NCBI GenBank assembly: GCA_964411565.1
Contig: CAYPLB010000001.1
Location: forward strand, 106,839 to 170,838
Reading direction: 5' to 3'
DNA length: 64,000 nucleotides
Source: Candidatus Woesearchaeota archaeon
GTDB taxonomy: Archaea > Nanobdellota > Nanobdellia > SCGC-AAA011-G17 > GW2011-AR17
Shown here: positions 7,347 to 30,381 of the stretch, one piece after another
Layout of the letters: every line of letters begins with the position of its first letter
How positions within the stretch are numbered: position 1 is the stretch's first letter
Notes under the pieces: model-generated
Databases searched by the model: none
Seen by the model: only the letters and a program-made list of their open reading frames with translations
Told to the model about the DNA's origin: nothing
Made by a program: the position numbers and the translations under genes

Positions 7347-7378
7347 ACTTTATTAATTCTTTTATATATTATTTATTT

Positions 7379-13653: not shown

Positions 13654-15489
13654 TTATCCTTGAACCTTTGTTAGTAATAATGGGAAAAATTTTGGATAAG
13701 CTTTGTCTAAAATGTCATAGGCTTGGGAATATAAAACTCTTAATCTTTGTTGTTCTTGTGGATTGATTTTTCCATCAACTGTGTAAGTTCCTGAGCTATG
13801 GTTAATACTTACTTCTGATTGTAAAATTTCATTTTTGAAGTAAACGAAACCAGCTTGATGGTATAGAGAATGAAGAGGATGATGGAAATAACCTTTTAGT
13901 TCTTCATCTTGGTTTAATCTTGCTCTCCATCTGAATATTATTGAAGCAGCTTCATTACTATATCTTAAGGTGCAATTTTCAGTTTCAAGTTCTTTTTCTT
14001 GTTTAAAAATTGTTGTTTCTAATTGAGTTCTATATTCATCGTTTTTTAAGGATGGAGGTTTAAAAGCAGTTCTTCTTTCATGATTAGGATCAAGAATAAA
14101 TAATTTTCTTTCTAGCCTTCCAATTTCTTTTTTTCTTCTTTCATGTTCTTTTGCACCAATTAGTGGCCATCTTAGGAATGGATTTTGAGATTTTAAAATT
14201 ATTCTTTTTGTAGAAGATAATTGGAAAAGTGGATATTGTAAATCTAATATTTTAAATTTAATATCTTTAAGAGTTGGATCTTCTTCTTCAAGAAAAGATA
14301 ACATTTCTTGTTCATATTGTAAATTTCTTTTTCTATGATTAATGATAGGGATACTAGTTATGATTCCAGATGTTAGACATGCTCCAGCTGTTAATAACAT
14401 TCCAGGAATGGAACCTAATAAATATGGCATTGTACTAGCAGCTACAACACCTCCAATTAAAGCTCCAGATATTACAGGTAAGTGAGGGAATTCTTTTGTT
14501 TTTCTTTCTGCTGCTTCAATTATACTTGTTTGTTCAGAAAGTATTTGAGAAATGTCAGTTGTTGTTAATGTCAGTTTTTTGGATTTGTGTTTTGGTATTA
14601 TTGTTTCTACATAAGATTCTAAATCTGATTTTACTTCTCTTACTGTTTGATAATTTTTTGTTAAGTCTACAAGCAATAATTTATCAACAATGTTTTTTAA
14701 TCCTTCTGGGATTCTTTCAGGAAGTTTATATGGACTCACTCCTGTGATTCTGCTCATTAAAATTTCTCTTTTTAGTTCTCCTTCTAAAGCAAAAGCTGCT
14801 GAACAACCAAGAGCATATAAATCACATTTTGTATTACTCTCTCCAATTTCTTGAAGAGGGTGTCTGGTAGTTATAGAACCTACAGAAGTATAAGAAGTTC
14901 CTTCTCCACCTTTTTCTTTTGAAGTGTCCATGTCAATGATTCTAACGAATCCAATATCATCTACAATTAAATGTTCAGGCTTTATATCTCTATGAACAAT
15001 GTCTTGAGAATGTAAATATTCTAATCCTTCGGAAGTGCTAAGTAAGATAGGAGCTAATTCTTTTGCTGTAAGTCTTCCTTTTTCTTCAACCATTTCAGCT
15101 AAGCTTTTTCCTTGTGCTTTTTCTCTAATAGCTAAGAAAAAATCTTCATGTTCGATTACTTCTAATAGTTTTGGGAAGTGAGGATTATCTATGATTCTTG
15201 AGTTATTTAATCCTCTTCTTATTGCATTGAGTAAGGAATCATAGTCTGCATCTGCTAAATTACCAGCAACAAGTTTTGCAACATATTCATTTTCATTATT
15301 ATCTTTTAATTCAAAAACTAATCCTTGTCTACCTATACCTAAAGTATCTGTAATTTGGTATTCTCCAATTGTACCTGTAGGATATAATTCAAAAAAATCA
15401 TCAAATGTTCTTCGAAATCTTCTAATCTCTCTTTTATTCAATTTTTCTTCTAATTTTTGTCTAGGTAATAATTCAATAGCTTGTTGCAT
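13654..15489 (-). CDS. eukaryotic-like Ser/Thr protein kinase, membrane-spanning, with C-terminal domain of unknown function
   Basis: 611 aa. The Gly-rich loop LGIGRQGLV, catalytic loop HRDIKPEHL and a DFG-like IIDMDTS are present. Two TM helices follow around residue 350, then a roughly 220-aa C-terminal domain. Confidence 0.8.
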   Translation of the reverse strand: MQQAIELLPRQKLEEKLNKREIRRFRRTFDDFFELYPTGTIGEYQITDTLGIGRQGLVFELKDNNENEYVAKLVAGNLADADYDSLLNAIRRGLNNSRIIDNPHFPKLLEVIEHEDFFLAIREKAQGKSLAEMVEEKGRLTAKELAPILLSTSEGLEYLHSQDIVHRDIKPEHLIVDDIGFVRIIDMDTSKEKGGEGTSYTSVGSITTRHPLQEIGESNTKCDLYALGCSAAFALEGELKREILMSRITGVSPYKLPERIPEGLKNIVDKLLLVDLTKNYQTVREVKSDLESYVETIIPKHKSKKLTLTTTDISQILSEQTSIIEAAERKTKEFPHLPVISGALIGGVVAASTMPYLLGSIPGMLLTAGACLTSGIITSIPIINHRKRNLQYEQEMLSFLEEEDPTLKDIKFKILDLQYPLFQLSSTKRIILKSQNPFLRWPLIGAKEHERRKKEIGRLERKLFILDPNHERRTAFKPPSLKNDEYRTQLETTIFKQEKELETENCTLRYSNEAASIIFRWRARLNQDEELKGYFHHPLHSLYHQAGFVYFKNEILQSEVSINHSSGTYTVDGKINPQEQQRLRVLYSQAYDILDKAYPKFFPLLLTKVQG

Positions 15490-15569
15490 TAGAAAAGAAA
15501 TTTTATTTTGATTTATAAGAATTGTTAAACTGCGAAAATATTAAATATAGGTTTATTATTAAGGTATTT

Positions 15570-16313
15570 ATGAATATGAAATATTTAGTAGGTTTGGTTC
15601 CTGCTGTTGGGATTATAACTGTTGGGACTATAGATATACATTCTATAGGGGATGATTTTAATGTTAGTGTTAAACAAGAAGGTTTGGAAGCTAAGTTTGA
15701 TATTTCTAATCCTGGATATAGAGATCATTGTTTGAGAAATTATGATATTATGGTTAGAATAGTTCAAGTGGAAGGTATGAAATATGCTGACCATGGAGAT
15801 GGTTATGAATTTGACTATGATTCTGCAGATTTACTATATAGAGCTCCTATTTGGAATGGTGATGGAAGTAGAGCTGCACCAACAGTAGGTGAGTTAATGT
15901 TACAAAGTGGAGTTTTAGTTGAAGATGGAGACAAAATATTGGTCTCTGAAGAATATAAATCAATAGTAAGTGAAGAAGAGGTAGAGAGAAGAAGAAAGGA
16001 AGAAAGTAATGTAATTTTTGTTGATCCAAATGAAGGAGGGCCAATAGGACTTTTTTATACAGTTGTAAGAATGGGTGGTAGATTTTTGAAACAAGTTAAT
16101 GAAGAGGATGATCATTTGCGACTTTATATTGCAAGAGTAGATCTACCTCTGATTGCAAGAGAATTGGAAGAGTCAAGGTTGCAAGTTGTTGAAGAAGAGG
16201 ACAGTTCTTTTGTGTTTAGTTGGCCTTGTTGTATTCCAAGTTTTAGAAGTTCAAAAGCAAAGGAAATGAGAGAAATGTATCCTGATCCAACTTTGGGAAA
16301 GAATTTTTTATAA
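15570..16313 (+). CDS. hypothetical protein (N-terminal hydrophobic segment)
   Basis: The ORF track starts at 15522. The internal ATG at 15570 (MNMKYLVGLVPAVGIITV) is the more plausible start. The protein is acidic with no recognisable motif and is divergent from the kinase gene. Confidence 0.45.
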   Translation: MNMKYLVGLVPAVGIITVGTIDIHSIGDDFNVSVKQEGLEAKFDISNPGYRDHCLRNYDIMVRIVQVEGMKYADHGDGYEFDYDSADLLYRAPIWNGDGSRAAPTVGELMLQSGVLVEDGDKILVSEEYKSIVSEEEVERRRKEESNVIFVDPNEGGPIGLFYTVVRMGGRFLKQVNEEDDHLRLYIARVDLPLIARELEESRLQVVEEEDSSFVFSWPCCIPSFRSSKAKEMREMYPDPTLGKNFL

Positions 16314-16399
16314 AAATTGGTTTTAATTTATTTCTTTTTTGAAAAATTTTCAGATTTTTTATAAATAGATTTATATATTACTTAGTATTACTTTGTATT

Positions 16400-16657
16400 A
16401 TGGAAACAATAAGTTTGAAAATGGAAACTAAATTAATAAAAGATATTGATAGAGCAATGAAGAGACATAGATATTCTACAAGGACTGAATTTATTAGAGA
16501 TGCTATTAGGAATAAACTTGGAGCATTAGGTAAAGAAGAAGCTATTAGAAATTTAGAAAAATATTTTGGTAAAGGGAAGTCTAAGAATAAATTTTCAGAT
16601 CGAGAATGTAGAGAGTTAGCTTGGAAGGAATATGGTAGAAAATATAATTTAGATTAA
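16400..16657 (+). CDS. ribbon-helix-helix (CopG/Arc-like) DNA-binding protein
   Basis: 85 aa. An N-terminal beta-strand then two helices (ISLKMETKLIKDIDRAMKRHRYSTRTEFIRDAIRNKL) is typical of the RHH fold. Confidence 0.5.
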   Translation: METISLKMETKLIKDIDRAMKRHRYSTRTEFIRDAIRNKLGALGKEEAIRNLEKYFGKGKSKNKFSDRECRELAWKEYGRKYNLD

Positions 16658-16748
16658 GTCTTCTGGTTTTTTAATCTCTAAATATCCTTCAAATATAATC
16701 TATTCTAGTATCATAAAGCTTTTAAAATGATGAAATTGGATTTATTTT

Positions 16749-18437
16749 ATGTCTTTAAATAAGGAATTAAAGAAACTTATCTTATTATATTTAGCATTTG
16801 TTTTGGGGAAGGTTGTATTAGGGTTTTTTATTAGTTCTCCGAGTGCCTTAGGTGATGAGTATCTTTATTCAAAAATAGCTAGAAATCTCTTTGAATATAG
16901 TTCTAGCTTGTATCATGGAGATGTTTTAGCTCATAAGTATCTTCCTTTGTATCCTTTGTTTTTATCAATAGGATATCTATTTTCAAACATGGAAGTTGTA
17001 TACTTTGTAATGAAAGTAGTTAATGCATTTCTTTCATCAGCTATTATTTTTCCAGTTTATTATTTAGCAAGAGAATTTTTAGAATCAAGGAAAGCTTTTG
17101 TCGGAGCATTTTTAGTTTCAATATTTGTAGCAAATTTTAATGTATTTGCATATTTAATGTCAGAGAATTTATTCTATCCTTTGTTTATGTTATTTGTATT
17201 TTTAGTTTATTTTGCTTTTAAAACAGATAATAAATGGTTGTTTTTAATCTCTGGAATAGTTTTAGCTTTAGCTTATTGGGTTAGAGTTTTAGCTTTAGTT
17301 CTGATTCCAGTAGTTTTTGTGGTTTGGTTATTTAGAAGGACTAAATTTGTGAACCTAATTTGGCATTATGGCTTTGCTTTGCTCTGTGTGATCCCAATCT
17401 TTTTTAGAAATGTTGGAACTTATGGAGGGTCAGCAATGGCAGTGACTGGAGGTTATGGTGGTCCATTAGCTTTTATGGGTAACTTTATGACAAATCCTTT
17501 AGGATTTTTTAATTGGATTGCTTTATACTTTGCTTATGCATTGATTGCTACAGGATTTATTTTTGGATTTTATTTCTTGCTTGGATTGAAAGTTAAAGAT
17601 AAGGATTTTAAATTATTGTATATGATTACAGGAATTAGTTTTATTGTCAATGTTTTAGTTATTGCAAATCAAGCAAATGGAAGTGATTTATTGTATAATT
17701 CACCTTTCTTTCCTTTGTTTTCAAATAGACCTATAGGTCGATATTTTGATATGACTTTGTCCTTAGTTTTGTTAGTAGGGTATATTTCTTTTGAAAAATT
17801 TGAGTTTAAAGAGAAATTTATTAAATTTGCAATTGGATTTAGTTCATTGATTTTGTTGTTAGGTACACAGCTGACAATTGCAGCTTTATTTCCTTTCAAT
17901 AATATGGCATTATCTTTGTTGGGTGTGTTAGATTTATTTTTAGAATGGTTATTTTATGGTTCAATCTTTTTAGAGTTTACTTGGTTGCCTTTCATTATTA
18001 TTGCTTGTATATTATTTATTATTCCGTATACTCTTTTATTGTTTAGAAAAAATAAGAATTTAGTGTTTTATTTAGGTGCTGGGTTTATTGTTCTTACTAC
18101 AGTAGTTAGTTTCTGTTTGATTTCATTTAATGCTGCACATTATTGGGGAGATTCTGATCAAGCAGAGTTAGGTCATTGGTTCAATGAAAATGTGGAAGGA
18201 AATGTTTTGTTGGATGAAAGATTTGTCTCAGATAAATTGACTAAGTATACTTTGAATGAAGAATTGTTTAATGTAAGGAATGAATGGTCATTGTTTGGGT
18301 TTTGGGTTAATGAAGAAATTAGAGTTGGAAGTCCATATAATATTGAAGGATTTGATTATTTAGTTTCTATGGATGAAAACTTAGGTTATGATATTATAAA
18401 GAAAGAAGGAGACTTTATTTTGTATGAGTTAAAATGA
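16749..18437 (+). CDS. polytopic membrane glycosyltransferase, GT-C fold (ArnT/PMT-like)
   Basis: 562 aa with about 12 or more TM helices. The N-terminal loop YLYSKIARNLFEYSSSLYHGDVLAHKYLPLYPLF resembles the ArnT/PMT_2 family. It is a paralog of the 861 and 44315 genes. Confidence 0.6.
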   Translation: MSLNKELKKLILLYLAFVLGKVVLGFFISSPSALGDEYLYSKIARNLFEYSSSLYHGDVLAHKYLPLYPLFLSIGYLFSNMEVVYFVMKVVNAFLSSAIIFPVYYLAREFLESRKAFVGAFLVSIFVANFNVFAYLMSENLFYPLFMLFVFLVYFAFKTDNKWLFLISGIVLALAYWVRVLALVLIPVVFVVWLFRRTKFVNLIWHYGFALLCVIPIFFRNVGTYGGSAMAVTGGYGGPLAFMGNFMTNPLGFFNWIALYFAYALIATGFIFGFYFLLGLKVKDKDFKLLYMITGISFIVNVLVIANQANGSDLLYNSPFFPLFSNRPIGRYFDMTLSLVLLVGYISFEKFEFKEKFIKFAIGFSSLILLLGTQLTIAALFPFNNMALSLLGVLDLFLEWLFYGSIFLEFTWLPFIIIACILFIIPYTLLLFRKNKNLVFYLGAGFIVLTTVVSFCLISFNAAHYWGDSDQAELGHWFNENVEGNVLLDERFVSDKLTKYTLNEELFNVRNEWSLFGFWVNEEIRVGSPYNIEGFDYLVSMDENLGYDIIKKEGDFILYELK

Positions 18438-19543
18438 AAAAAGTTTTGTTTATTTTAGAAGATTTTTATCCTATGAAAGGAGCTCCTGCAGTAAGGATTA
18501 ATTCTTTTATTAAAAAATTTAAAGATTGTAAAGTTGAAGTTCTTGGTGGTTCAAGCGAAAAGGTTTACAAGAGAGGATGGTATATAATACATAGGCCTTC
18601 AGAAAGTAAGTTGTTTTCATTTATTTGGTTTTTAATAAAAATGAATGTAAAAGCTGTTTATTTAACTTTAATAAAAAGGTATGATCTTGTTGTTGTTTCT
18701 ATTCCTAAATATGAAGTTTTGTTGAGTTTTCCTTTAATTAAATTGTTGAGTAAGAAGACTGTTTTGGATATTAGAGATTCGTTTGAATTTTTGAGATATG
18801 ATTCTTATTTTAAACATTTTTTTCCAAGGGTAGTGGCAGAAGGTTTGGGTGCTTTTGTAAAAAATTATTTTGTGAGAGGATTTTTGAATGTAAGTTTTAA
18901 ATTAGCAGATTTGATTACTGTGGCAAATAGAGGTATTAAAAATTCTCTTTCAGGGTTAGATAATGTTTATGTTGTTTCTAATGGGGTAGATGTAGACTTG
19001 TTTAGGCCTAAAAATAAAATGAAAAAATCAAATTTACAATTAATTTATGTTGGTAATTATTCTGAAAAAGATAGATTTCATTGGATTCTAAATGTAGTCC
19101 CCAAATTTAATGTAACTTTGAATTTAGTTGGGAATGGTAGATGTAAAGGAAAAATTTTGAAAAAATTCAAGGAAAGAGATGTTGATTATGTTGATCATGG
19201 ATTTGTAAAACATGAAGATATGCCTAGAATTTTATCTTCAATGGATCTAGGTTTTATATTTAGAGATGCTGAAATTAATGAATCAATTCCTGTATCTGTT
19301 TATGAGTTTTGTGCAATGAATATTCCTACATTAATAAATGATGTTGGTATTATGTCTAAGTTTGTTAAAGAAAATAATTTAGGATTTGTTTTGAGAAGTC
19401 AAGAAGATTTTCAAGTATTAATGAAGAACTTTGTAATAAATCGAGGTGAATTGAGTAAATTTTCTAATTTACATACTTTAGCTGTTGATAATTTTTCTAG
19501 GAAAAAAGAAGCTGAGAAATTTAGAAATCTAGTTTTAAGTTAG
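18434..19543 (+). CDS. GT4-like glycosyltransferase
   Basis: 369 aa. It overlaps the upstream stop by 4 nt. The C-terminal region ESIPVSVYEFCAMNIPTLINDVG is GT-B/GT4-like. Confidence 0.6.
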   Translation: MKKVLFILEDFYPMKGAPAVRINSFIKKFKDCKVEVLGGSSEKVYKRGWYIIHRPSESKLFSFIWFLIKMNVKAVYLTLIKRYDLVVVSIPKYEVLLSFPLIKLLSKKTVLDIRDSFEFLRYDSYFKHFFPRVVAEGLGAFVKNYFVRGFLNVSFKLADLITVANRGIKNSLSGLDNVYVVSNGVDVDLFRPKNKMKKSNLQLIYVGNYSEKDRFHWILNVVPKFNVTLNLVGNGRCKGKILKKFKERDVDYVDHGFVKHEDMPRILSSMDLGFIFRDAEINESIPVSVYEFCAMNIPTLINDVGIMSKFVKENNLGFVLRSQEDFQVLMKNFVINRGELSKFSNLHTLAVDNFSRKKEAEKFRNLVLS

Positions 19544-20573
19544 GAAGTCTTGTTACTTCGTAGATTCTCAAGGATAATGTATTTGGATCTGATGTTCTTT
19601 CAGTTAATAATTTGGTTTTTGAATTTAAGTTTCTTCTGAATTGTTTTTCTAATGCTGTTTTAAACATCTTTGATGGTTTATTGAAGTGTTCTTTGAATGT
19701 GTAAATAAAAAATGCAGTTTCAATTCCTGAAGGATTGTAAGCAAAACCATACTTGCTTTTTTCTGCGATTTTTAAGTGTTCTTTACTTAAAGCATATTGA
19801 GTTAGCTTTTTGAATTTTTTTGATCTCCAAAATGAATGGGAAGGAAATTTTTGTTTTAACATTGCTAGAGCATAAAGATTGAATGCATGGTAAGCAGCTT
19901 CTTTTTTGTAAAGATATCTTTTTGAAGTTTTGTTCTTTAAAAAATTTAATGGAGTAATTATTTGAGGATAAATGAAATGTCTTATTAATCCATTTTTGTG
20001 AATATGTAAGTTATTTTCAAGCTCGTCCATGAATTTGTTAACCTCTTTTCCAATACTGTCTTTTTTGGAATTAGAAATTAAAGAAGAACAAGCAGCAAAC
20101 CAAAGTTGGTGATTAAATGTTAAATCTAGGAATAATTCTCTTCCATTTATTTCTCTTTTTTTCCAATAGGATAGAAAATTGTGGTAGTTTATGTAGTGGA
20201 AAGTCTGTTTTGCTAAGTTTTTATATTTTATCTCTTTAGTGTTTTCATAAGCAATCATTAAAGCTTCTATTGACCAGGCTTGTCCAATTAAACCATTACA
20301 TTTGTCTTTACCTTTTTTGTTTCTATAATAAAAAGTATAATTGTGTGGTCTAGCTTCTTTTAAGAAAAGAAAATTTATGTGTTTTATAGCAGCTTTTTTG
20401 TATTTTATCTTTTTTGTAATTTTATAAGCTTTGAAGAATAAAATAGAAAGGTGTGCATGAGTTCTAACCATTGTTTCGGGATCTTTGTAAGGACCATTGT
20501 GACCTGATTTGGTTTTACTTTTAAGAAAATAATCTGCATTTTTTATTATTATAGTATTAAGGTCTGTTTTCAT
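19521..20573 (-). CDS. hypothetical protein, possibly (alpha/alpha)-toroid fold sugar-modifying enzyme
   Basis: 350 aa, all-helical and K-rich, with a weak GQAWSIEAL signal. It has no firm family assignment. Confidence 0.4.
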   Translation of the reverse strand: MKTDLNTIIIKNADYFLKSKTKSGHNGPYKDPETMVRTHAHLSILFFKAYKITKKIKYKKAAIKHINFLFLKEARPHNYTFYYRNKKGKDKCNGLIGQAWSIEALMIAYENTKEIKYKNLAKQTFHYINYHNFLSYWKKREINGRELFLDLTFNHQLWFAACSSLISNSKKDSIGKEVNKFMDELENNLHIHKNGLIRHFIYPQIITPLNFLKNKTSKRYLYKKEAAYHAFNLYALAMLKQKFPSHSFWRSKKFKKLTQYALSKEHLKIAEKSKYGFAYNPSGIETAFFIYTFKEHFNKPSKMFKTALEKQFRRNLNSKTKLLTERTSDPNTLSLRIYEVTRLPNLKLDF

Positions 20574-21972
20574 TTTTTAGATGTTTTTTGGCTTTGTAAG
20601 TCATTACACTAACCATAGCAATGTCAAATAATCCTCCATATAATGTGAAGAAAATCATGTAATATTCTAAAATACCAAAAATGCTAAAAAGAATTATACT
20701 GTGACATAAGAAAAAATCGTTTAACATAAATTCTTTTAGCCATCCTCTTTTCTTTCTCTCTTTTTTTACTTCATCCATTCCGAAGTTAAACATTACTCTA
20801 AAGTTATATTGAACTATTACAGAGAATTCTAATACTGCAAAAGCTGTGAATGTCCAAATCCAAACATATACTGAAGGATTATTTAAGTAAATACCCCAGG
20901 CTATTGCAAAGAATAAAATAGGGTTCATTATCCTATCAGCTATTTTATCGTACCAACCACCTAATGGAGAACACATGTCTTTTTGTCTTGCTAAATTTCC
21001 ATCTACAGTGTCGAAAACGAATGATAAATAGTAAAGTAAAGAAGCTATTAAAACATAAACATAAATTCCTGTTGAGTAGAAATATGATGCTACTATAAGT
21101 AATAACATGCTAAAAAAAGTTACTTGGTTTGGTGTAATTTTTGTATCTTTTATTGCATGAACAATGAAGTATGTAAGTGTAACATGAGGAATTCTTAAAA
21201 TATCTGTGTAAAGTCCTTCTTTGATATGTTTGCCTTCTCTAATTTCTTTTAATGAAAGTTTTTTCTTTTTTGTTTTTGTAGTTTGTTTATTGAATTTGTA
21301 AATTCTTAATCTTGTTTCAGGGAATTTGTTTAATTCACAACCCTCTTCAAACATGTTGTTATGTTTTATGATATCAAAACCTATACTCTTGAAGAAATTT
21401 ATGTATTGTTCTGGAGTTCTGTAAGTTGCACTGTAATAAGTTTGTAGAGCTTCTGAAAATCTTCTATTAATCTCATATCTGCCTTTGATACCTGTTCCAT
21501 CTCTTAAAATTATTTTTGTATTCTCATGTGAATATTGTCTAATCTTTTCTCCTAATTTTATTAAATCAGTATCATTTAAGTAAATTAAAAGTCTTGAGAT
21601 AAAAATTATGTCATATTTTGTTTGACTATCATATTCTTGAGCTGAAGCTTGGAAATATTTTATGTTGTTTATTCCTTGTTCTTTACATTTCTTTTTCCCT
21701 AAAGCAATTAAATCGAAACAATAATCTACTATATGAACTTCTTTAGCTTTTTTTGCAAATCTGAATGCCCATCTACCATAGCCACCAGCTAAATCTAGAA
21801 TGGTTTTATTATGTAAATTTGGAAGAAATTCGTCAACTCTTTTTTCTTCTAAGTCTGTTTTTAATTTTCTTAACCTATTATCATCTTCAAGATTAGTAAT
21901 GCCTTTGTTGTCACTATGTTGTTCTGCTCTCTTTTCCCAAAAGTCTTTTACTTCCTTTAAGTTGATTGCCAT
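20557..21972 (-). CDS. fusion protein: N-terminal class I SAM methyltransferase + C-terminal CDP-alcohol phosphatidyltransferase
   Basis: 471 aa. The N-terminus has ILDLAGGYGRWAF (motif I). The C-terminus has DTVDGNLARQKDMCSPLGGWYDKIADR, an exact D-G-x2-A-R-x8-G-x3-D-x3-D signature, within a multi-TM region. Confidence 0.75.
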   Translation of the reverse strand: MAINLKEVKDFWEKRAEQHSDNKGITNLEDDNRLRKLKTDLEEKRVDEFLPNLHNKTILDLAGGYGRWAFRFAKKAKEVHIVDYCFDLIALGKKKCKEQGINNIKYFQASAQEYDSQTKYDIIFISRLLIYLNDTDLIKLGEKIRQYSHENTKIILRDGTGIKGRYEINRRFSEALQTYYSATYRTPEQYINFFKSIGFDIIKHNNMFEEGCELNKFPETRLRIYKFNKQTTKTKKKKLSLKEIREGKHIKEGLYTDILRIPHVTLTYFIVHAIKDTKITPNQVTFFSMLLLIVASYFYSTGIYVYVLIASLLYYLSFVFDTVDGNLARQKDMCSPLGGWYDKIADRIMNPILFFAIAWGIYLNNPSVYVWIWTFTAFAVLEFSVIVQYNFRVMFNFGMDEVKKERKKRGWLKEFMLNDFFLCHSIILFSIFGILEYYMIFFTLYGGLFDIAMVSVMTYKAKKHLKNENRP

Positions 21973-23216
21973 TTTAAGTATGATAATTTTGTATTTGTTA
22001 ATAATTTGTTTGATAAACTTAAATTTTTAGGTTTTTTGATTCTTGTATTAAATAAGAAATCCATGTTAAAGGTTGTGAATTCGTTTTCTTGCTTTGTTGG
22101 GATAGGTAATACTCGAATGCCTAATGGTTTGTCTAATGTTGATGATAAAGATGCTATATCTAAGATAATAGAGTTTAGCTCTTCTTCAAAAATGTCACCA
22201 GGTAAAGGAACCATGTCTAGACCACATCCGCAAACAGCTGAGTATGATATTAATGAGTCAATTGAAAATAATTTGTTGTTATTTCTTAAACCTAATTGTT
22301 CATCTTCTAATAAAGAAAACATAACTCCATTGAATCCTGTAGTTGGGATGTTATTTCTTTTCTGAATTTCTTTTAAGATGTCAGTTAAATAGGAAGTTAA
22401 GAATAAAGTTCCATTGCTACCAAGTTGTTCTAAACCTAAGAGTTCTATTAATTCTGCTACACTACTACCTTTCTCTGGATAAGGTGCAAGAGAAAAATCT
22501 ATTCCATGATATTTAATAAAATGTTTATTTGTTAAAACTGTTAACATTTTATTTATTTGATTTATTTTTGGAGATATTTTTGTTATTATTTCTTCCCTTA
22601 ATGAAATTAAATCTTTGTTTTCAGAAGAGTTGATTATTTGTATGAACTCTTTTGGAAGTTCTAAACCTGCTGAAATACCTAGTTCTTCTGAACTGTATGT
22701 GTATGGAAAGAAAGGTGTGTTTGCTTTTATGTTACAAGAAATACCTACTCTGAAATTATTATAACCAGAGTTATCTAATTTTGATACGTCTTTGATGAAT
22801 TTACTTGCAATAGGTATTGAATTGTAAGAAATGTTTTTGTTTTTTGCAACAATTAAATTTGAAAAAGTTTTTGAGTATCTTTTTAAGATTGTTAAGGCTA
22901 ATTTGGATAATTCTTTTGGATTCTCGGTTAAATCAAAAGGTATGTTTATCCATCTAATGTTTAATCTGTCTGCAAAGCTTGAAAAAGTTTCTATTTTTCC
23001 TATTATTTTTTGTGAATTTAAATCTGAATTTTTGTTTGTGATTGGAGTTAAGTTTATTCTAAATGTTCTAACATTGATGTTTTCCATAGCTAAAGCTATT
23101 GTTGTTTCTTCAAGAAAATTTTTTAGTTTTGATTCTAGATGTAATAAAGTATCAGATTCTATGTCAATAGGAATCCCAATTGTTATTGTTCTAAGATCCA
23201 TTTTTTGTTTTCTCAA
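21957..23216 (-). CDS. hypothetical protein
   Basis: 419 aa, soluble, with no recognisable motif. It is operonic with flanking genes (16-nt and 26-nt overlaps). Confidence 0.45.
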   Translation of the reverse strand: MRKQKMDLRTITIGIPIDIESDTLLHLESKLKNFLEETTIALAMENINVRTFRINLTPITNKNSDLNSQKIIGKIETFSSFADRLNIRWINIPFDLTENPKELSKLALTILKRYSKTFSNLIVAKNKNISYNSIPIASKFIKDVSKLDNSGYNNFRVGISCNIKANTPFFPYTYSSEELGISAGLELPKEFIQIINSSENKDLISLREEIITKISPKINQINKMLTVLTNKHFIKYHGIDFSLAPYPEKGSSVAELIELLGLEQLGSNGTLFLTSYLTDILKEIQKRNNIPTTGFNGVMFSLLEDEQLGLRNNNKLFSIDSLISYSAVCGCGLDMVPLPGDIFEEELNSIILDIASLSSTLDKPLGIRVLPIPTKQENEFTTFNMDFLFNTRIKKPKNLSLSNKLLTNTKLSYLKWQST

Positions 23217-25011
23217 TTAAATTAATGTAATCTAAAGGGGTATTTATCTCATGGAAGAATATATCTTTTATGTCAATAATGTTTATTTCAAAATTTTCTA
23301 AAGGTAAATTGATTCCAGCAAAAACATTTTTGTTGTTTAAACATCTTTTTTTCCATTCTCTTAAAATATCTGGATTTGAAATTTTGAATATTCCTGTTGT
23401 TTCAGGTTCATTTGAAAAATCTTCTCCAAAAAACATATCTTTTATTATTCCTTCTTCAGATTTACATCTTACTGTGTTATAACCTTTGTTTTCTGATTGA
23501 AATACAAATACTGAGTTATCTGGTGAAGATTCTATTAAATTTAACATTTCTTCGTCGAAAATTAAGTCTGATGATGTGACTATTGTAGGTCGGTCATCTA
23601 AAGCTAAACTTAAACTATAGCTATTTCCTGTGATTCTCCATTGGTCATTGTAAACATAATTTAAATGAGGATATTCTTGCATAACATGTAAAGCTTTGTG
23701 GCCTAAAACTACTGTGATTTCATAATCTTTGAAAAGCCTAGAATATTTTTCTATTAAAGTTTCTTGATTTTTCGGATCTTTTATGAAAAGTTTGTTTAAA
23801 CCATGAACTTTGAAACCTTGGCCTGCAGCTAGGATAATTAATCTTTTAGATTTATTTTCCTTTTCTATTAGAATCTCTCCTTTTAAGTTTTCTAATGGAA
23901 TATAACATTCACTAATTACTCTGGGAAAATTGTGTTTGACAGTTTTGTAAGGATATATGTCTCCTTGGTTTGCCCTTGCTATTACTGTAGGAATATCAAC
24001 ATATTCTTCTTTTCTTAAAGTCCAAACTTTTACATCTTCATAATTAAAACCTTGTGTAGGTATTTTTTTAATCCCCATTCTTATTGCAGCTTGTAATCTA
24101 TGTTGGCCGTCAAGAACTAAGTTGTGATTTTTTTCAATATAAATTGGTTTTAACCATGCACCATCTTTTTCAATTTTTTCTACTAAAATATTAACTCTTT
24201 CTTCATCAAAATTTTCTATATGTTTAAGTTTTTCAGTTTCTATGAAATTAATTTCTTTTTCTTTTGGTTGTTCTTCATCAAATTCTAACTCTACAGCTTT
24301 GTAGTAATCCTCTGGAGAATTGAAAGTTGAAAATTTATATTGGCTAGCATTTCCTTCAATACATGGTAAGTGATTTAAGTTTTCAATCCATGGTATTAAG
24401 AAATATTGTTTGAAAGTTTTTTCTGCATAAATGTTAACAAGTTTTTTGAATAAGTCAATTTCATTTGGACCCACTCTCATTAAACCTGTTAGTTTTGTAT
24501 GGTTTTTGTATTCTTCTCTGTATTCTGGAACTATTCTAATATCATTTATGTTACCTAACTCATCTGATCTTAAAATACCACCATATTGAGTATCATTAAA
24601 TTTTCCTTTTGTAAGCCAAGTTGATTTCCCTTCAAAGTCAGAACCAGCTAAATATTGTAATAATGAATCTTCAGCAATCATATCAGCTTCAACAATAATA
24701 AAAGGATTTTCTATATGATCTAAAGCAAGTTTCATAGAATAAATGTTAGTATCTTCAAAATATCTAGGATTTTCTACAATTTGTATTTCAATATCTGCTA
24801 TATTTTTTGTTTCTTCAATAATTTTATCTTTTGCAAAGCCCACAACAATTATAATTTTTTCAATATTAGCTTTTTTTAATTGATTGATAACTCTAGATAA
24901 GATAGTTTGATCTTTGTATTTCAATAAAGACTTGTGTTTTCCCTCACAAAGCAATCCCATTCTTCGGCTAGATCCTGCAGCTAGAATTATAGCCTCTTTA
25001 ATCTCGTTCAC
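23191..25011 (-). CDS. tri-domain protein: nucleotidyltransferase - ParB/sulfiredoxin-like domain - nucleotidyltransferase
   Basis: 606 aa. The N-terminus has AIILAAGSSRRMG (sugar/alcohol-phosphate NTase G-x-G-x-R loop). The middle has LVLDGQHRLQAAIRMG (ParB/Srx-type DGxHR). The C-terminus has a second LIILAAGQGFKV NTase-like domain. Confidence 0.6.
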   Translation of the reverse strand: MNEIKEAIILAAGSSRRMGLLCEGKHKSLLKYKDQTILSRVINQLKKANIEKIIIVVGFAKDKIIEETKNIADIEIQIVENPRYFEDTNIYSMKLALDHIENPFIIVEADMIAEDSLLQYLAGSDFEGKSTWLTKGKFNDTQYGGILRSDELGNINDIRIVPEYREEYKNHTKLTGLMRVGPNEIDLFKKLVNIYAEKTFKQYFLIPWIENLNHLPCIEGNASQYKFSTFNSPEDYYKAVELEFDEEQPKEKEINFIETEKLKHIENFDEERVNILVEKIEKDGAWLKPIYIEKNHNLVLDGQHRLQAAIRMGIKKIPTQGFNYEDVKVWTLRKEEYVDIPTVIARANQGDIYPYKTVKHNFPRVISECYIPLENLKGEILIEKENKSKRLIILAAGQGFKVHGLNKLFIKDPKNQETLIEKYSRLFKDYEITVVLGHKALHVMQEYPHLNYVYNDQWRITGNSYSLSLALDDRPTIVTSSDLIFDEEMLNLIESSPDNSVFVFQSENKGYNTVRCKSEEGIIKDMFFGEDFSNEPETTGIFKISNPDILREWKKRCLNNKNVFAGINLPLENFEINIIDIKDIFFHEINTPLDYINLIEKTKNGS

Positions 25012-25116
25012 GAGAGAAATCTATTCTATTTGCTTTTTAAGTTTTATGGAGTTCTTATATGTTATTTAGAGAATATTTACATAAGGCTTATATAGGATTT
25101 ATTTATTTTTTTAATT

Positions 25117-25764
25117 ATGGTAAGCACATTATTAAAATATTTTGAGGATATACCTCAGATTGGTTTTTTGTTAAAAGATAATTTTCCTTTGGCTAAAGCA
25201 ACTGGTGTTCCACAAGCTTTTGAAGGAGAAGAACCTAATTGGGATATGTTAAGAGAACAATTTGGAGATGCAATTTATATTAATAGAGGGACAAAGAATG
25301 AGTGGAGAGAAGTTTCTGTAGCAACACCTTATAATTTAGACAAAAGAATGATTCCTTCAGGAAGATTATTGAGAGTTCCAGGACAGAAAATAGATTCTTT
25401 TTCGGTACAAGCTCATAGAAGAGGTGCTTTAGAAGATTTTTCTTGGATGGAGACTGGACAATATTGTTTTGCTTTAACTCCAGATGGAAATAATATTATT
25501 GTTGGTACTAGGGGTGGATCAGAAAGTGTTGGAGAAGTGATAGCTTTGCCTGTAGGTAGTGTTGAATATAATCAAATTTCTGATGGTCGAGATTTAGCTT
25601 TAGAAGCAACTATTAAAGAAGGATATGAAGAAGGAGTAATTCAAGAACATGAATGGGATTTTATTAGACCTTTAGGAATTTATAGACAAGAACCTGGAAG
25701 TACAGCACCTTCAAATATTTTTATGTATCTAGGACAATTGAATATTCCTTTTGAAGAAGTTTAG
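25117..25764 (+). CDS. hypothetical protein
   Basis: 215 aa and soluble. It is richer in G/E/R than its neighbours and has no motif. Confidence 0.45.
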   Translation: MVSTLLKYFEDIPQIGFLLKDNFPLAKATGVPQAFEGEEPNWDMLREQFGDAIYINRGTKNEWREVSVATPYNLDKRMIPSGRLLRVPGQKIDSFSVQAHRRGALEDFSWMETGQYCFALTPDGNNIIVGTRGGSESVGEVIALPVGSVEYNQISDGRDLALEATIKEGYEEGVIQEHEWDFIRPLGIYRQEPGSTAPSNIFMYLGQLNIPFEEV

Positions 25765-25773
25765 AAGAGGCAT

Positions 25774-26121
25774 TTGAGATCAATGTTATTGTATATGAAT
25801 GCAAGAGCTGAAGGAGCTTTTGAGTCCAGTGCTGATGAATCTGAAGTAGAATCTTTTGCTAGAAGAACTTTAGATAGAAAAGCAAAAGAAAATCCTGGAA
25901 TGTATGCAAGAGATGCTTGGGAGAATCAACATTTAGGTTTAATACCTGCTGATCCCGAAGAGTTAGTTAGTTTATTGAAAAAAACTGATGAAACTTTAAA
26001 ACATGGGATGTTTGGAGCAATGGCTTTATACATTAAGCATGTTGGAGGAGATAAAGTTTATGGTCAATTTATGGATGTTTCTTCAGTTAAAAAACAATTA
26101 ATTGAAGGAAGAAATTATTAA
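25774..26121 (+). CDS. hypothetical protein
   Basis: 115 aa. It sits 9 nt downstream of the previous gene and is probably co-transcribed. Confidence 0.45.
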   Translation: MRSMLLYMNARAEGAFESSADESEVESFARRTLDRKAKENPGMYARDAWENQHLGLIPADPEELVSLLKKTDETLKHGMFGAMALYIKHVGGDKVYGQFMDVSSVKKQLIEGRNY

Positions 26122-26126
26122 TTTTT

Positions 26127-26637: not shown

Positions 26638-27861
26638 TCACATTCCTTTGTAATTATATTTATAGAATTTCTTGTAAAATTTAGGTAAAGATTTTATTCT
26701 TAATTTATTCTTTTTTTTGTCTTTGAACCATAATGTAGATTTGTCTGGATAGTCTTCTTCAAATGTTGCTTTTGCTAAAATTACTTCCATATCTTCAGGC
26801 CAGAAGGAATAATCTGGAGTTAGATCAACACCCATCCATTTTTTTATTGTTTTATCCCAAATTTCTCTAGATATTGTGCCAAACCAATAGTTTAATTTTT
26901 TCTCAAAAGGAGCATTTAGATATTTTTCTTTCTTTGTGAAAGTTCTTCCAAATCTTCCCCATTCTAAAATTGGGAAACCTCTTAATCTTAATTTTGAATC
27001 TAATCTTTTTTCATATCTTTCTAAATTTCTTATTAATTTTTGTTTGTCCATTAAATTTTCTTTTAAGAATTTTTTTATTGTTTTACCTTTTGTAATTCCA
27101 TTTTCATATAAGTACATTGCTTGGACTGCTTTTCCATAGTTTTTTGGGAATGTAGGTGTATCAACATGTAACATGCCTCTTACAGGATCGTACATCGAAG
27201 GTCTGCCTCTTTCTAATTCTCCAGGATGTTTTTTACCATCCCAGAAAATGTGACCTATATGGTTATCGTAATGGTAAATATTTTCTAGGCCTAAACGACC
27301 TATAATGATTAAAGACATAACTCCATGAATAGATAATCTGTGTGGTAAAAATGCTAAAACATTGAAATCAAAGAATCTTTTTTTCTTTGCAGCTTTAGAG
27401 TTAATAATGAAAAACATATCATCAAAGTGGCCAGTTGGACAATCATGTCTGTACCTAGAAAATCCTAAACCTCGCATAGCAAATTCTTTTTTGTTTTTTT
27501 TCATTTCTTTAATAATTTTCAAAACTTGATCTTCTTTTAATGGCCAGGCATCAGTGTGTAAGTGCATAACATAATCTGCTCCTGCTTTTATTGCACCAGT
27601 ACAAGATTTTTTTATACAGTCAGCAACTCTGCATCTCATGTTAATACTGTTTCGCATCCAAGGCATATCTTTTGTAACATTAATATCATCGCCTCTTGTG
27701 AAAACATCAATGTCTAAATTTTTTATATGTGGTTTAGGACTTGGATGGTTACTACAAACAGAAATAATATAGTCACCTTTCCAATTCTTTCTAATAATAT
27801 CTATTAAAATAGCTAATTCTTCAAATTTGTCATATAAACTGATAGCAATTCCTATTTTCAT
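26638..27861 (-). CDS. hypothetical protein, possible GT-A-like nucleotide-sugar transferase
   Basis: 407 aa. MKIGIAISLYDKFEELAILIDII resembles the first beta-alpha unit of GT-A enzymes and HLHTDAW is a possible DxD-like site. The assignment is weak. Confidence 0.35.
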   Translation of the reverse strand: MKIGIAISLYDKFEELAILIDIIRKNWKGDYIISVCSNHPSPKPHIKNLDIDVFTRGDDINVTKDMPWMRNSINMRCRVADCIKKSCTGAIKAGADYVMHLHTDAWPLKEDQVLKIIKEMKKNKKEFAMRGLGFSRYRHDCPTGHFDDMFFIINSKAAKKKRFFDFNVLAFLPHRLSIHGVMSLIIIGRLGLENIYHYDNHIGHIFWDGKKHPGELERGRPSMYDPVRGMLHVDTPTFPKNYGKAVQAMYLYENGITKGKTIKKFLKENLMDKQKLIRNLERYEKRLDSKLRLRGFPILEWGRFGRTFTKKEKYLNAPFEKKLNYWFGTISREIWDKTIKKWMGVDLTPDYSFWPEDMEVILAKATFEEDYPDKSTLWFKDKKKNKLRIKSLPKFYKKFYKYNYKGM

Positions 27862-27903
27862 TGTAAAGAAAAATTAAAAATGTATTAATAAGTTTTTGGA
27901 AGA

Positions 27904-28836
27904 TCAAGCTTCTAAAACTTTTAATACTGTATCAACAAGGTTGTCTTTGTCAAGTCCATACTTTTTGTATAAGTCGTTTGGATTTCCACTCTCACCAAAG
28001 AAATCTTTTGGTAAACCAATCTTTGTTAAAGCAGCTCTTCCATCATTCTCAACAATTGCTGAAGCAACCATATCACCAAGTCCACCAATAACTCTGTGAT
28101 CCTCTATAGTTACTATTTGGTCATATTCTCTTGCAACTTTACCAACTGAAGCACCATCAAAAGGATGTATAGAAGGTACATTGATTACTTTTGTTGAAAT
28201 CTTATGTTTTTCTTCAAGTTCTTTAGCAGCTTCTAATGCAGTAGCAATTGTTCCTCCCTGTGCATATACTGCAATATCGTTACCTTGTCTAAGAGTTACT
28301 GTTCTACCTGGAATAAATCTATAATTCTCTTTATTTACTTCTAACATTGGTTGTCTACATAATCTTAAGTAAGCTGGGCTATTGCTTGTAGCAAGATGTT
28401 CCATAATTGCTTTTGTTTCTATTTCATCAGCAGGTTGGTATATTTCTAAACCTTGCATTGCTCGCATAATTGCTAAATCTCTTGTACCCATTTGAGTTGC
28501 ACCGTCTTTACCAATTGCTAAACCTGCATGAGTTCCAACTAAAACTACTGGAGCTCTGTTATAACAAATTGAATTTGCTATTTGGTTTGTTGCAACTTCC
28601 ATGAATGCACCAAAAGTACTGAAGAAAGGTCTGTAACCTGAAAGAGCTAAACCAGATGCAATACTAACAGCATTTGATTCTGCAATTCCACATTCAAAAA
28701 ATCTTTCTGGATATTGTTTGCCAAAAGCTTTTGTTTTTGTAGCACCACATAAGTCTGCACTTACTACTAAAATATTTTCATATCTTGAACCTAAATCTAA
28801 TAAAGATTCACCAAATGATTCTCTTGTTGATTTCAT
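27904..28836 (-). CDS. transketolase, C-terminal subunit (split transketolase)
   Basis: 310 aa. It has pyrimidine-binding and C-terminal domains (FFECGIAESNAVSIASGLALSG...THAGLAIGKDGATQ). It overlaps the N-terminal subunit gene by 4 nt. Confidence 0.9.
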   Translation of the reverse strand: MKSTRESFGESLLDLGSRYENILVVSADLCGATKTKAFGKQYPERFFECGIAESNAVSIASGLALSGYRPFFSTFGAFMEVATNQIANSICYNRAPVVLVGTHAGLAIGKDGATQMGTRDLAIMRAMQGLEIYQPADEIETKAIMEHLATSNSPAYLRLCRQPMLEVNKENYRFIPGRTVTLRQGNDIAVYAQGGTIATALEAAKELEEKHKISTKVINVPSIHPFDGASVGKVAREYDQIVTIEDHRVIGGLGDMVASAIVENDGRAALTKIGLPKDFFGESGNPNDLYKKYGLDKDNLVDTVLKVLEA

Positions 28837-29723: not shown

Positions 29724-29724
29724 T

Positions 29725-30381
29725 TTATATCCTTAAATATTGATCAGCTACTTTACCTTTTAATATTCCAATCATTGCATGAAGAACATGTAATGATAAA
29801 TCTTCATATGTTAAATTAAAATCATTTCCACCAGTTTGGCCAGGGAATAATGAACCTTCACCAGGAATGATTATACAATGATCTGCTAAGTCTTTTGCAG
29901 TTCCACCATCTTTTCTTGCTCCAACAATTGCAATTGATTTTGCTCCATATTCTTTTGCAACTTCAAAAGCATTAATTACATTTCTAGAAGTTCCACTTCC
30001 AGTTAAACCAATAACTAGATCTCCTTCATCAATTTCATAGTTTCTTAATTGTTGTGCAAAAATTTGATCATAACCAAGATCATTTGCTAAGCCTGTTAAC
30101 ATTGCACCACTTGCGCCTAAATCTACAGTTCTTAGTCCTTGAATTCCTTTAGGTAAAGGTCTACTTTTATCTTCACTAACAAAGGGATGTGTGCTAAGAT
30201 CCATTAAAGCATGAGAAATTGTTCCAGCTGGACCACCATTTGCACATCCATAAACAGTTCCATTATCAAAATAAGTTTGAATTAATGTTTCTGAAGCCCT
30301 TCCTATTTCTTCACGAGGTAGACTCATTAAAGATTGTGCCGTTTCTGTTTGATATTGTCTTAGTAGTGTTTCGATTTTCAT
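29725..30381 (-). CDS. SIS-domain sugar-phosphate isomerase (GmhA/sedoheptulose-7-phosphate isomerase-like)
   Basis: The ORF track starts at 30402. An internal ATG at 30379-30381 is preceded by a strong SD (ctGGAGGaaaaaaATG) and aligns with GmhA N-termini (MKIETLLRQYQ...). The motifs GCANGGPAG...LTGSGTSRN support the family. Confidence 0.8.
   Translation of the reverse strand: MKIETLLRQYQTETAQSLMSLPREEIGRASETLIQTYFDNGTVYGCANGGPAGTISHALMDLSTHPFVSEDKSRPLPKGIQGLRTVDLGASGAMLTGLANDLGYDQIFAQQLRNYEIDEGDLVIGLTGSGTSRNVINAFEVAKEYGAKSIAIVGARKDGGTAKDLADHCIIIPGEGSLFPGQTGGNDFNLTYEDLSLHVLHAMIGILKGKVADQYLRI

Follow-up and report, generated by a model that had tools for sequence, protein, structure and literature searches.

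A methyltransferase–CDP-alcohol phosphotransferase fusion in a woesearchaeal glycan island, and the head-group decoration module to which it may belong

The CDP-alcohol (cytidine diphosphate-alcohol) phosphotransferases AF2299 and DIPP synthase (DIPPS) do not process lipids, both carry an N-terminal cytosolic domain, and in AF2299 a small hydrophilic donor pocket is occupied by the glycerol of CDP-glycerol; their layout of six transmembrane (TM) helices goes with soluble acceptors, whereas the choline and ethanolamine phosphotransferases (CPT/EPT), whose acceptors are lipids, carry three to four further helices (PMC4634129). Prokaryotic routes to phosphocholine-type head groups, as listed in PMC10434233, proceed either by choline scavenging (Lic-1, Pcs, acylation) or by methylation of the finished lipid (PmtA), and methylation of a soluble phosphobase is not among them; another account limits that reaction to plants, nematodes and protozoa (PMC4805780). 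The gene considered here brings the two subjects together. It is an open reading frame (ORF) of 471 amino acids (aa) in a 64,000-nt stretch of contig CAYPLB010000001.1 from a marine Candidatus Woesearchaeota archaeon (this whole stretch is called the window below), and it fuses a class I S-adenosylmethionine (SAM) methyltransferase to a CDP-alcohol phosphotransferase. Both domains are members of known superfamilies; what is new is the combination of a methyltransferase resembling the phosphoethanolamine N-methyltransferases (PEAMTs) with an AF2299-type transferase, a conserved module of five activities around it, and an apparent exchange between LicD and the CDP-alcohol transferase. We lean, with modest confidence, towards the view that the fusion is a bifunctional enzyme for the last two steps of a module that decorates a surface glycoconjugate with a head group.

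The fusion ORF and its two halves

The ORF runs without interruption from an ATG start to its stop and stands third in a row of four minus-strand genes that overlap one another. Its parts are the following.

20557..21972, minus strand: fusion ORF, methyltransferase + linker + CDP-alcohol phosphotransferase (ORF list, Pfam, AlphaFold2 model)
21289..21972, minus strand: class I SAM methyltransferase domain, aa 1-228 (Pfam, family alignment A1, profile matches in the PDB)
21772..21801, minus strand: SAM-binding motif I, ILDLAGGYGR, aa 58-67 (translation)
21592..21594, minus strand: codon 127, AGA (Arg), where family A1 has Gly (comparison with the family and with sister genomes)
21193..21288, minus strand: Lys-rich linker, aa 229-260 (junction DNA of the window, L004 and L001; pLDDT 50-61)
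20557..21192, minus strand: CDP-alcohol phosphotransferase domain, aa 261-471 (Pfam, hydropathy, AlphaFold2 helices, subfamily profile A2)
20935..21012, minus strand: catalytic signature D321-x2-D324-G-x2-A-R-x8-G338-x3-D342-x3-D346 (translation)

Pfam recognises both halves (Methyltransf_25 at aa 58-145, E = 5.6e-12, 46.6 bits with a cutoff of 27; CDP-OH_P_transf, PF01066, at aa 279-388, E = 2e-13, 51.4 bits with a cutoff of 22), and hydropathy together with an AlphaFold2 (AF2) model (mean pLDDT 81.9, pTM 0.59) predicts, in this order, a Rossmann domain, the Lys-rich linker, a juxtamembrane helix (262-274) and six TM helices (281-301, 304-330, 336-364, 368-394, 419-431 and 435-467). The linker occupies the place of the stop/start overlap seen in split relatives: the junction DNA (...AAA TTC AAT AAA CAA ACT ACA AAA ACA AAA AAG AAA AAA CTT TCA TTA AAA GAA...) contains A-runs (aaaaacaaaaaagaaaaaac) and is in frame and free of stops, and the former first residue of the second gene is Leu (CTT), unable to start translation. 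The same 1416-nt ORF is present in a Black Sea metagenome-assembled genome (MAG; Nanoarchaeota archaeon BS150m-G60, L001/L010), in a Saanich Inlet MAG (SI037S2_bin4, L011) and in a JGI contig (L012) that is identical to L011 over this ORF, all in loci with about 87% nucleotide identity to the window. Pairwise synonymous divergence (dS) among the fusion-bearing assemblies is 0.39-0.66, their linker codons differ, and the ratio of nonsynonymous to synonymous divergence (dN/dS) is 0.10-0.16 in the methyltransferase half and 0.04-0.05 in the transferase half, with the linker exceeding both. Both halves are therefore functional and under purifying selection, and their frame has outlasted substantial divergence.

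The fusion is genuine; it is also young and limited to one small clade. Its nearest unfused transferase relatives (P0029 and P0030, 66-68% identity) are stand-alone proteins of 239-242 aa, each preceded by a separate methyltransferase gene that overlaps by 32 nt (on a 127-kb contig) or by ATGA (in L004), and both loci share the window's downstream genes. No other protein matching both halves was present among the 150 best hits of a HMMER pass with the full-length query over 1.84 billion representative proteins, and the transferase domain, when used to scan genomes and metagenomes, brought up the same clade only. The protein is already deposited as 'CDP-alcohol phosphatidyltransferase family protein'. 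Being recent and lineage-restricted, the fusion has its main value as a pointer to the module described below. An earlier note, written from the letters of this DNA, had read here a single 471-aa fusion with a perfect CDP-alcohol transferase motif, and both statements hold: Pfam finds both halves, the junction is in frame, and the frame, which neither a frameshift nor a stop splits, is conserved in three diverged assemblies. The same fusion, which that note proposed to seek in other genomes, does occur in them, although within the one clade (L001/L010, L011, L012) and in no other protein among those 150 best hits.

What kind of methyltransferase is it? Methyltransf_25, Methyltransf_31 and Methyltransf_11 all match this half in Pfam, and the AF2 model shows a seven-stranded Rossmann core. 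An alignment of 43 relatives of about 230 aa each (A1) delimits a tight family with invariant F11, W12, E42, G64, Y180, Y184 and R185 and a nearly invariant LDLGxG; elsewhere this methyltransferase occurs as a free soluble protein. When the A1 profile is compared with PDB sequences, plant PEAMTs (5wp5, 4e-28; 5wp4, 3e-27) and the nematode enzyme HcPMT1 (4krg, 8e-21) come out ahead of the best non-PEAMT, ToxA (3e-16), and of DhpI (1.3e-12), which places the MT1 domains of PEAMTs 12 orders of magnitude ahead of any other solved methyltransferase and 16 ahead of DhpI. The alignment with HcPMT1 spans the N-terminal lid 'FW', the Rossmann core and a common 'YR', and the invariant W12 aligns with Trp14 of the HcPMT1 phosphobase pocket, whose residues are Trp14, Met26, Met27 and Trp123 (PMC10269165). 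Judged by the family profile, the methyltransferase half is PEAMT-like, with PEAMTs as its nearest characterised relatives. It groups with small-molecule enzymes, not with rRNA/tRNA methylases, and the analogy with phosphoethanolamine N-methylation drawn in the earlier note is supported by this ranking; the LicC-like and serine-kinase-like protein encoded upstream is a further point in favour of that note's reading.

The transferase half has a complete signature, DTVDGNLARQKDMCSPLGGWYDKIAD (D-x2-D-G-x2-A-R-x8-G-x3-D-x3-D), at aa 321-346, and in the alignment of its subfamily (A2) the columns D, DG, AR, G and D are invariant or nearly so. Membership in the PF01066 superfamily follows from the signature, the profile score and a 6-TM core with the signature on TM2-TM3. 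Compared with PDB sequences, the A2 profile matches AF2299 over nearly the whole domain (5e-39), then DIPP synthase (1e-21) and the phosphatidylinositol-phosphate (PIP) synthases (1e-14), and only at a distance CEPT1/CPT1 (5e-9 to 1e-7) and PgsA and PssA (about 2e-5); a single-sequence search with the C-terminal half likewise gives AF2299/DIPPS as best relatives (5.3e-17). By hydropathy and in the AF2 model the three to four extra C-terminal TM helices of CPT/EPT are absent, the protein ending after TM6 at aa 471. All this places the transferase half, on profile evidence, in an AF2299/DIPPS-like clade and not among the cholinephosphotransferases, so that the cholinephosphotransferase-type transfer first envisaged for it is not borne out.

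Operon partners and recurrence of the module

Positions 1-51 kb of the window form one large glycan island with three PMT_2 genes, GT1/GT2/GT4 genes, a Wzx-like flippase and a GDP-mannose dehydratase. The window has 66 ORFs that reach 100 aa or more; the Pfam scan covered the 50 largest, and among these neither phosphoenolpyruvate (PEP) mutase, LicD or choline kinase nor genes of the O-methyl-phosphoramidate (MeOPN) type were found. The partners of the fusion in its operon are these.

24292..25011, minus strand: LicC-like nucleotidyl(cytidylyl)transferase domain, aa 1-240 of the 606-aa protein (NTP_transf_3, 1.7e-23)
23857..24285, minus strand: ParB/Srx-fold, free-serine-kinase-like domain, aa 243-385 of the same protein, motif LVLDGQHR (PDB)
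23191..23850, minus strand: second nucleotidyltransferase domain, aa 388-606 of the same protein (second NTP_transf_3 stretch)
21957..23216, minus strand: DUF711/UPF0210 protein, 419 aa, second gene of the operon (Pfam, 1.7e-68; PDB 2ha9, 2.9e-19)
19521..20573, minus strand: U350, a conserved all-helical protein of 350 aa, fourth gene (ORF list)

The 606-aa protein, product of the operon's first gene, is itself a three-domain fusion of a nucleotidyltransferase (NTase), a ParB-fold domain and a second NTase. The best PDB match of its first domain is LicC (1jyk, 3.1e-8), the CTP:phosphocholine cytidylyltransferase (CTP, cytidine triphosphate), and its ParB-fold domain matches SerK (5x0b, 6.6e-7) and SbnI (0.019), the small-molecule kinases that PMC12704722 lists for the ParB fold; SerK phosphorylates free serine, and SbnI is described as a serine-kinase homologue (PMC5120207). 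The NCBIfam model of SerK matches the 606-aa protein at 1.7e-8, far under its cutoff, and in the orthologue of L018 the annotated ParB_N is a weak match. With LicC and SerK/SbnI as its best solved relatives, the 606-aa protein would fit a role in donor supply. The second NTase is orthologous to separate genes of 217-221 aa in L005 (47.6% identity) and L018 (51.8%), and it has no PDB or NCBIfam match when searched alone. The DUF711 gene and the fusion ORF have 16 nt in common; the solved family member 2ha9 is a ten-stranded barrel like those of ribonucleotide reductase and pyruvate formate-lyase (RNR/PFL) and lacks the radical glycine (PMC4390871). The gene of U350 shares 17 nt with the end of the fusion ORF and is kept downstream of the transferase in L001, L004, L011, L012 and the contig of P0030; its Pfam, PHROG and PDB matches are marginal, none of them significant, and its single-sequence AF2 model, at a pLDDT of 48.9, is too poor to be of use. 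A C5-epimerase-like (alpha/alpha)6 identity for U350, raised by a pairwise BLASTP match (4e-5 over 64 aa), is not supported, the hhalign probability being only 9%. A scan for promoters and terminators did no better than on shuffled sequence.

The module recurs in other genomes. By tblastn, residues 1-377 of the 606-aa protein have an orthologue, 36-58% identical, in a gene of about 370 aa that lies directly upstream of the methyltransferase in L002, L003, L005-L007 and L018, and is separated from it by three small ORFs in L008/L009. In L005 the order is LicD, an Asp/Glu-racemase-like gene, NTase/ParB, NTase2, a DUF711-methyltransferase fusion and LicD, with identities to the window of 47% (NTase/SerK-like), 48% (NTase2), 50% (DUF711) and 53% (methyltransferase), and with the two LicD genes in place of the CDP-OH transferase. 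L002, L003 and L006-L009 combine NTase/ParB, methyltransferase and LicD, and L006-L009 have a second A1 paralogue. In L018, by contrast, a CDP-alcohol transferase accompanies NTase/ParB (58%), NTase2 (52%), a methyltransferase and DUF711 (51%), all unfused and adjoining a flippase and a PMT_2 glycosyltransferase. Three versions of the module retain DUF711, at an identity of about 50%. It appears from these gene orders that the terminal transferase is exchangeable, being LicD in some lineages and a CDP-alcohol transferase in others. Other members of the transferase subfamily adjoin cytidylyl- or nucleotidyltransferases in glycan clusters (L016, with YfhO and GT4; L017, with STT3/AglB), and a methyltransferase lies within about 3 kb in six of the seven subfamily contexts inspected (the exception being L016), a small sample whose count is further tempered by the fact that methyltransferases are common in glycan clusters.

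A second line of evidence comes from domain fusions. The A1 methyltransferase is fused to DUF711 in the metagenomic proteins P0002, P0003, P0025 and P0043 (in L005 at 6905..8794), to a pyridoxal-phosphate (PLP)-dependent decarboxylase of the Orn/DAP type in P0095 and P0120, and to a nucleotidyltransferase in P0175; a fusion with an Asp/Glu-racemase-superfamily domain also exists within the set P0095, P0120, P0136, P0147 and P0175. A chain of fusions thus ties together all five activities of the module, and the DUF711-methyltransferase proteins offer a concrete functional lead for DUF711.

Some neighbours of these modules deserve mention in their own right. L006 has a B12-binding radical SAM (B12-rSAM) gene at the module edge and, at 15234..16855, a cytidylyltransferase-PEP mutase fusion and a thiamine pyrophosphate (TPP) enzyme near the module, which suggest phosphonate synthesis. 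Downstream of the module in L002 (11511..15642) lie genes for an APS-kinase-like protein, a PEP-utilising enzyme of 721 aa, a class I glutamine amidotransferase-like protein and an NTase; by Pfam family this gene set, in L002 only, matches the MeOPN pathway of C. jejuni. The modules of L008 and L009 stand amid many ORFs of 40-110 aa that have no Pfam match, a setting reminiscent of a viral or mobile-element genome with a glycan-decoration cassette.

The proposed pathway and its competitors

What might such a set of enzymes make? In the pathway that we favour, the serine-kinase-like domain of the 606-aa protein would phosphorylate a small hydroxy-amine, for which free serine is the best guess, and the LicC-like domain of the same protein would turn the resulting phospho-alcohol and CTP into a CDP-alcohol. 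DUF711 would carry out a conversion of an intermediate, and we can only guess that it is a decarboxylation yielding a compound of the phosphoethanolamine type. The methyltransferase domain of the fusion would then N-methylate, at the expense of SAM, the soluble phospho-base or its CDP derivative, and the 6-TM AF2299-type domain, at the cytoplasmic face of the membrane, would take over the methylated phospho-head group from CDP, place it on a hydroxyl of the acceptor and set free cytidine monophosphate (CMP). The likeliest acceptor would be a glycan on a lipid carrier, produced by the glycosyltransferase island around the operon, because the exchange with LicD and the setting in a glycan island both point to such a glycan rather than to a membrane lipid. 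The affinity to AF2299/DIPPS and the six TM helices with no extra ones make a lipid product less likely than a glycoconjugate. The sequences themselves show the domain identities, the reality and youth of the fusion, the layout of the operon, the chain of fusions, the recurrence of the module and the exchange of its transferases; methylation on N rather than on O, the origin of the head group from serine, its likeness to choline, the part played by DUF711 and the glycan as acceptor are inferred.

Several observations weigh against this pathway. Three of the four pocket residues of HcPMT1 are changed in the A1 family (Met26 to N, Met27 to L and Trp123 to a nearly invariant Gly), possibly leaving a wider phosphobase pocket. 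In the very column of Trp123, codon 127 encodes Arg in the window and nowhere else; the sister genomes have Gly (GGA/GGT), as do at least 90% of the A1 sequences. A G127R replacement at this nearly invariant pocket Gly could weaken or alter the methyltransferase, and Arg127, which stands for one sample of the population, could be a real change of specificity, a disabling mutation or a base error. The single-sequence PDB search favours PEAMTs marginally (1.3e-7 against 2.9e-6 for ToxA; the PEAMTs range from 1e-7 to 1e-6), and Foldseek, run with the fusion model against the PDB, returns generic small-molecule methyltransferases only, with PEAMT, DhpI (a phosphonate O-methyltransferase), ToxA and NTMT1 scoring about alike; since scores are this similar among many methyltransferases, the PEAMT link is one of sequence profiles and not of fold. 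Furthermore, the operon contains no recognisable decarboxylase. The methyltransferase of L018 belongs to a family other than A1, so the chemistry of methylation may vary between modules. Finally, a glycan-lipid acceptor would be without precedent, given that the 6-TM CDP-alcohol transferases have been described with soluble acceptors (PMC4634129).

A more specific form of the proposal, which we hold only tentatively and judge rather unlikely, is a prokaryotic de novo route from serine to a phosphocholine-type head group, using a ParB-fold serine kinase, DUF711 as the converting enzyme, PEAMT-like methylation, LicC-like activation and attachment by a LicD- or AF2299-type transferase. Its order would be from phosphoserine to phosphoethanolamine or its CDP form, with DUF711 as a new type of decarboxylase or converting enzyme, then methylation, CTP activation and attachment. 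We found no description in the literature of a prokaryotic route that combines a phosphoserine decarboxylase with a PEAMT.

Among the alternatives, other chemistry in the same setting is the one that survives best, and we regard it as possible though improbable. The transferase might hand over glycerol phosphate or ribitol phosphate from CDP-glycerol or CDP-ribitol, in the manner of teichoic acids, or a phosphoramidate or phosphonate, with O-methylation of a phosphate, a phosphonate or a sugar hydroxyl. AF2299 itself binds CDP-glycerol (PMC4634129), a CDP-alcohol transferase beside a glycerol-3-phosphate cytidylyltransferase has been predicted to be TagF-like (PMC11032452), and a CTP_transf_like gene lies near the transferase in L016; moreover, the place of DhpI among the top structural matches of the fusion model, the PEP mutase beside the L006 module and the MeOPN-like families of L002 keep this alternative in play. 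Against it, the A1 profile prefers PEAMTs (4e-28) to DhpI (1.3e-12), the window lacks a PEP mutase and MeOPN-type genes among its 50 largest ORFs, and both the serine-kinase-like domain and the fusions of the methyltransferase to PLP decarboxylases point to an amine derived from an amino acid.

Doubtful to a greater degree is a membrane-lipid head-group synthase, which would join CDP-archaeol or CDP-diacylglycerol to a polar alcohol (serine, ethanolamine or inositol phosphate), with subsequent PmtA-like methylation to an archaetidylcholine-like lipid. Archaetidylcholine exists in some archaea, occurring in Methanopyrus, and fusion to a membrane domain would put the methyltransferase at the bilayer. 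It is also true that the best NCBIfam matches of the C-terminal half are archaetidylinositol-phosphate synthase (NF040950, 3.5e-16) and PIP synthase; the former, however, scores 59.6 bits, far short of its cutoff of 180, and the A2 profile prefers AF2299 and DIPPS, which do not process lipids, to PIP synthase, PgsA and PssA. In addition, the operon brings a soluble LicC-like cytidylyltransferase, the orthologous modules end in the glycan-directed LicD, and the methyltransferase resembles soluble phosphobase methyltransferases and is a free soluble protein elsewhere. DPANN archaea are in general not known to synthesise lipids, which we also count against a lipid product. Of the lipid or glycan that the earlier note had offered as carrier of the head group, the glycoconjugate is thus favoured by the LicD-terminated orthologous modules, and the lipid has become the less likely of the two.

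Less probable again is the synthesis of a soluble phosphodiester, with a cytoplasmic osmolyte (compatible solute), for example a glycerophospho-(methyl)amino-alcohol, as product. DIPPS and AF2299 handle soluble substrates and six TM helices are typical of soluble acceptors (PMC4634129), and a soluble pathway enzyme N-terminal to a TM transferase mirrors the layout of IPCT/DIPPS; nevertheless, the module always sits within clusters for glycosyltransferases, flippases or oligosaccharyltransferases, its transferase is interchangeable with LicD, and the operon has no genes for inositol-phosphate or polyol synthesis. As to an assembly or sequencing artefact, in which an indel in the A-rich junction would have joined two adjacent genes, the A-runs and the two overlapping genes of close relatives make the thought a natural one, and it is ruled out by the 1416-nt frame shared, with differing linker codons and at a dS of 0.39-0.66, by three diverged assemblies from different sites and by a second half devoid of its own start codon.

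If head-group decoration of a surface glycan is indeed what the module does, the implications would reach beyond this gene. Zwitterionic surface head groups such as phosphocholine affect the interactions of microbes with hosts and partners, and the module suggests a route additional to those already described for prokaryotes, in which a soluble phospho-base is built and methylated before its transfer; such a route would suit symbiotic DPANN archaea, which rely on the cell surface for attachment. The chain of fusions yields testable hypotheses for the DUF711/UPF0210 proteins, the NTase-ParB/SerK-like proteins, the prokaryotic PEAMT-like family and the AF2299 clade. Should the serine-to-phosphocholine route prove true, phosphobase methylation would extend beyond the plants, nematodes and protozoa named in PMC4805780, DUF711/UPF0210 would receive its first function, and the AF2299 clade would acquire a task in the living cell, that of standing in for LicD when glycoconjugates are decorated.

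Surroundings of the operon and comparison with known systems

Elsewhere in the island stands a second pair of the same two enzyme types, unfused.

40695..42136, minus strand: methyltransferase + CDP-alcohol transferase, two genes with a 4-nt overlap (Pfam)
41408..42136, minus strand: methyltransferase of the second pair, 242 aa (Pfam)
40695..41411, minus strand: CDP-OH_P_transf protein of the second pair, 238 aa (Pfam)

This pair, in which the earlier note had seen a recurrence of the pairing, is real, and pairing with a methyltransferase does recur in the subfamily; yet it is not a duplicate of the fusion. With 24% identity between the methyltransferases and 32% between the transferases, and with a methyltransferase that matches A1 in the Rossmann core only, its members are distant paralogues. 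Its transferase signature ends in ...GAIIDFIGS and has no last (fourth) Asp, a residue that is also replaced (by G, S or C) in several members of the A2 subfamily; either the AF2299-like clade can do without this Asp or such members depart from the usual mode of catalysis. The pair is flanked by B12-rSAM enzymes at 35779..37146 and 42595..43896 (both plus strand), and a LPG_synthase_TM protein, an NTase of 286 aa and a Wzx-like flippase are also encoded between these two genes.

Upstream of the head-group operon, about 1 kb (25079..26124, plus strand) separates it from a sugar operon and holds two plus-strand ORFs, 25117..25764 (215 aa) and 25774..26121 (115 aa), which have no Pfam or PHROG match; BLAST finds no match to this segment in L010 and L011, which are collinear with the window apart from it, and the segment is thus an insertion peculiar to the window genome. 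The sugar operon (26638..34037, minus strand) encodes a shikimate-dehydrogenase-like protein, a KdsC-like HAD phosphatase of 420 aa, a 553-aa fusion of an NTase and an APH kinase, a GmhA-like sedoheptulose-7-phosphate isomerase, a split transketolase and a protein of 407 aa, and it looks like an unusual route to a nucleotide-diphosphate (NDP)-heptose-type sugar with fused kinase and nucleotidyltransferase; for the 553-aa protein no informative solved relative was found. Farther away, an ORF of 1310 aa at 53143..57075 (plus strand) has intein splicing domains in two stretches and a LAGLIDADG homing-endonuclease domain. The window contains no tRNA or Rfam matches.

How, then, does the fusion compare with what has been described? 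AF2299 of Archaeoglobus fulgidus (4o6m) and IPCT/DIPP synthase (4mnd) share with it the 6-TM core and the full signature, and they too have a soluble cytoplasmic domain N-terminal to the TM domain, which in IPCT/DIPPS performs the preceding step (PMC4634129). The partner in the fusion, however, is a SAM methyltransferase instead of a cytidylyltransferase or cytidylyltransferase-like domain, the cytidylyltransferase being encoded by a separate upstream gene, and the surroundings are a glycan island, not osmolyte synthesis. CPT1 and CEPT1 (8gyw, 8ero) belong to the same superfamily, share the signature and draw on a CDP-amino-alcohol that is soluble, the type of donor proposed here; nonetheless, they match far more weakly than AF2299 (5e-9 to 1e-7), and the three to four extra C-terminal TM helices that hold their diacylglycerol acceptor are absent from the fusion (PMC4634129). 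As for the other half, the MT1 domains of the PEAMTs (AtPMT1/2, HcPMT1) are the best solved relatives of A1, aligned from the lid FW to YR, at about 17-18% identity in Foldseek structure alignments; the enzyme of the window differs from them in having one methyltransferase domain rather than two and in being prokaryotic.

The only other fusion of a methyltransferase and a CDP-alcohol transferase that we met is the bacterial protein P0228 of Campylobacter iguaniorum (430 aa; CP009043.1, L014 10001..11293), annotated as 'SAM-dependent methyltransferase', an independent union of a class I methyltransferase with a transferase of the same broad subfamily. In it the transferase comes first (aa 43-189) and the methyltransferase second (aa 257-404), the reverse of the order in the window; its methyltransferase lies outside the 150 best hits of the full-length query, and its locus is again one for glycans, of the nonulosonic acid/flagellin glycosylation type, with NeuB, DegT, two ATP-grasp proteins and a CMP-sugar-synthetase-like protein. 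The closest parallel for the pathway as a whole is Lic-1 (LicA, LicC, LicD), in which a kinase, a CTP-dependent cytidylyltransferase and a transfer of the phospho-head group to a surface glycan follow one another, as is here predicted from the genes. In the window lineage, by contrast, a ParB-fold serine-kinase-like domain would take the place of the LicA-type choline kinase, and a CDP-alcohol phosphotransferase that of LicD. The methyltransferase and DUF711 come in addition to what Lic-1 contains, and this suggests that the head group is synthesised de novo rather than built from scavenged choline.

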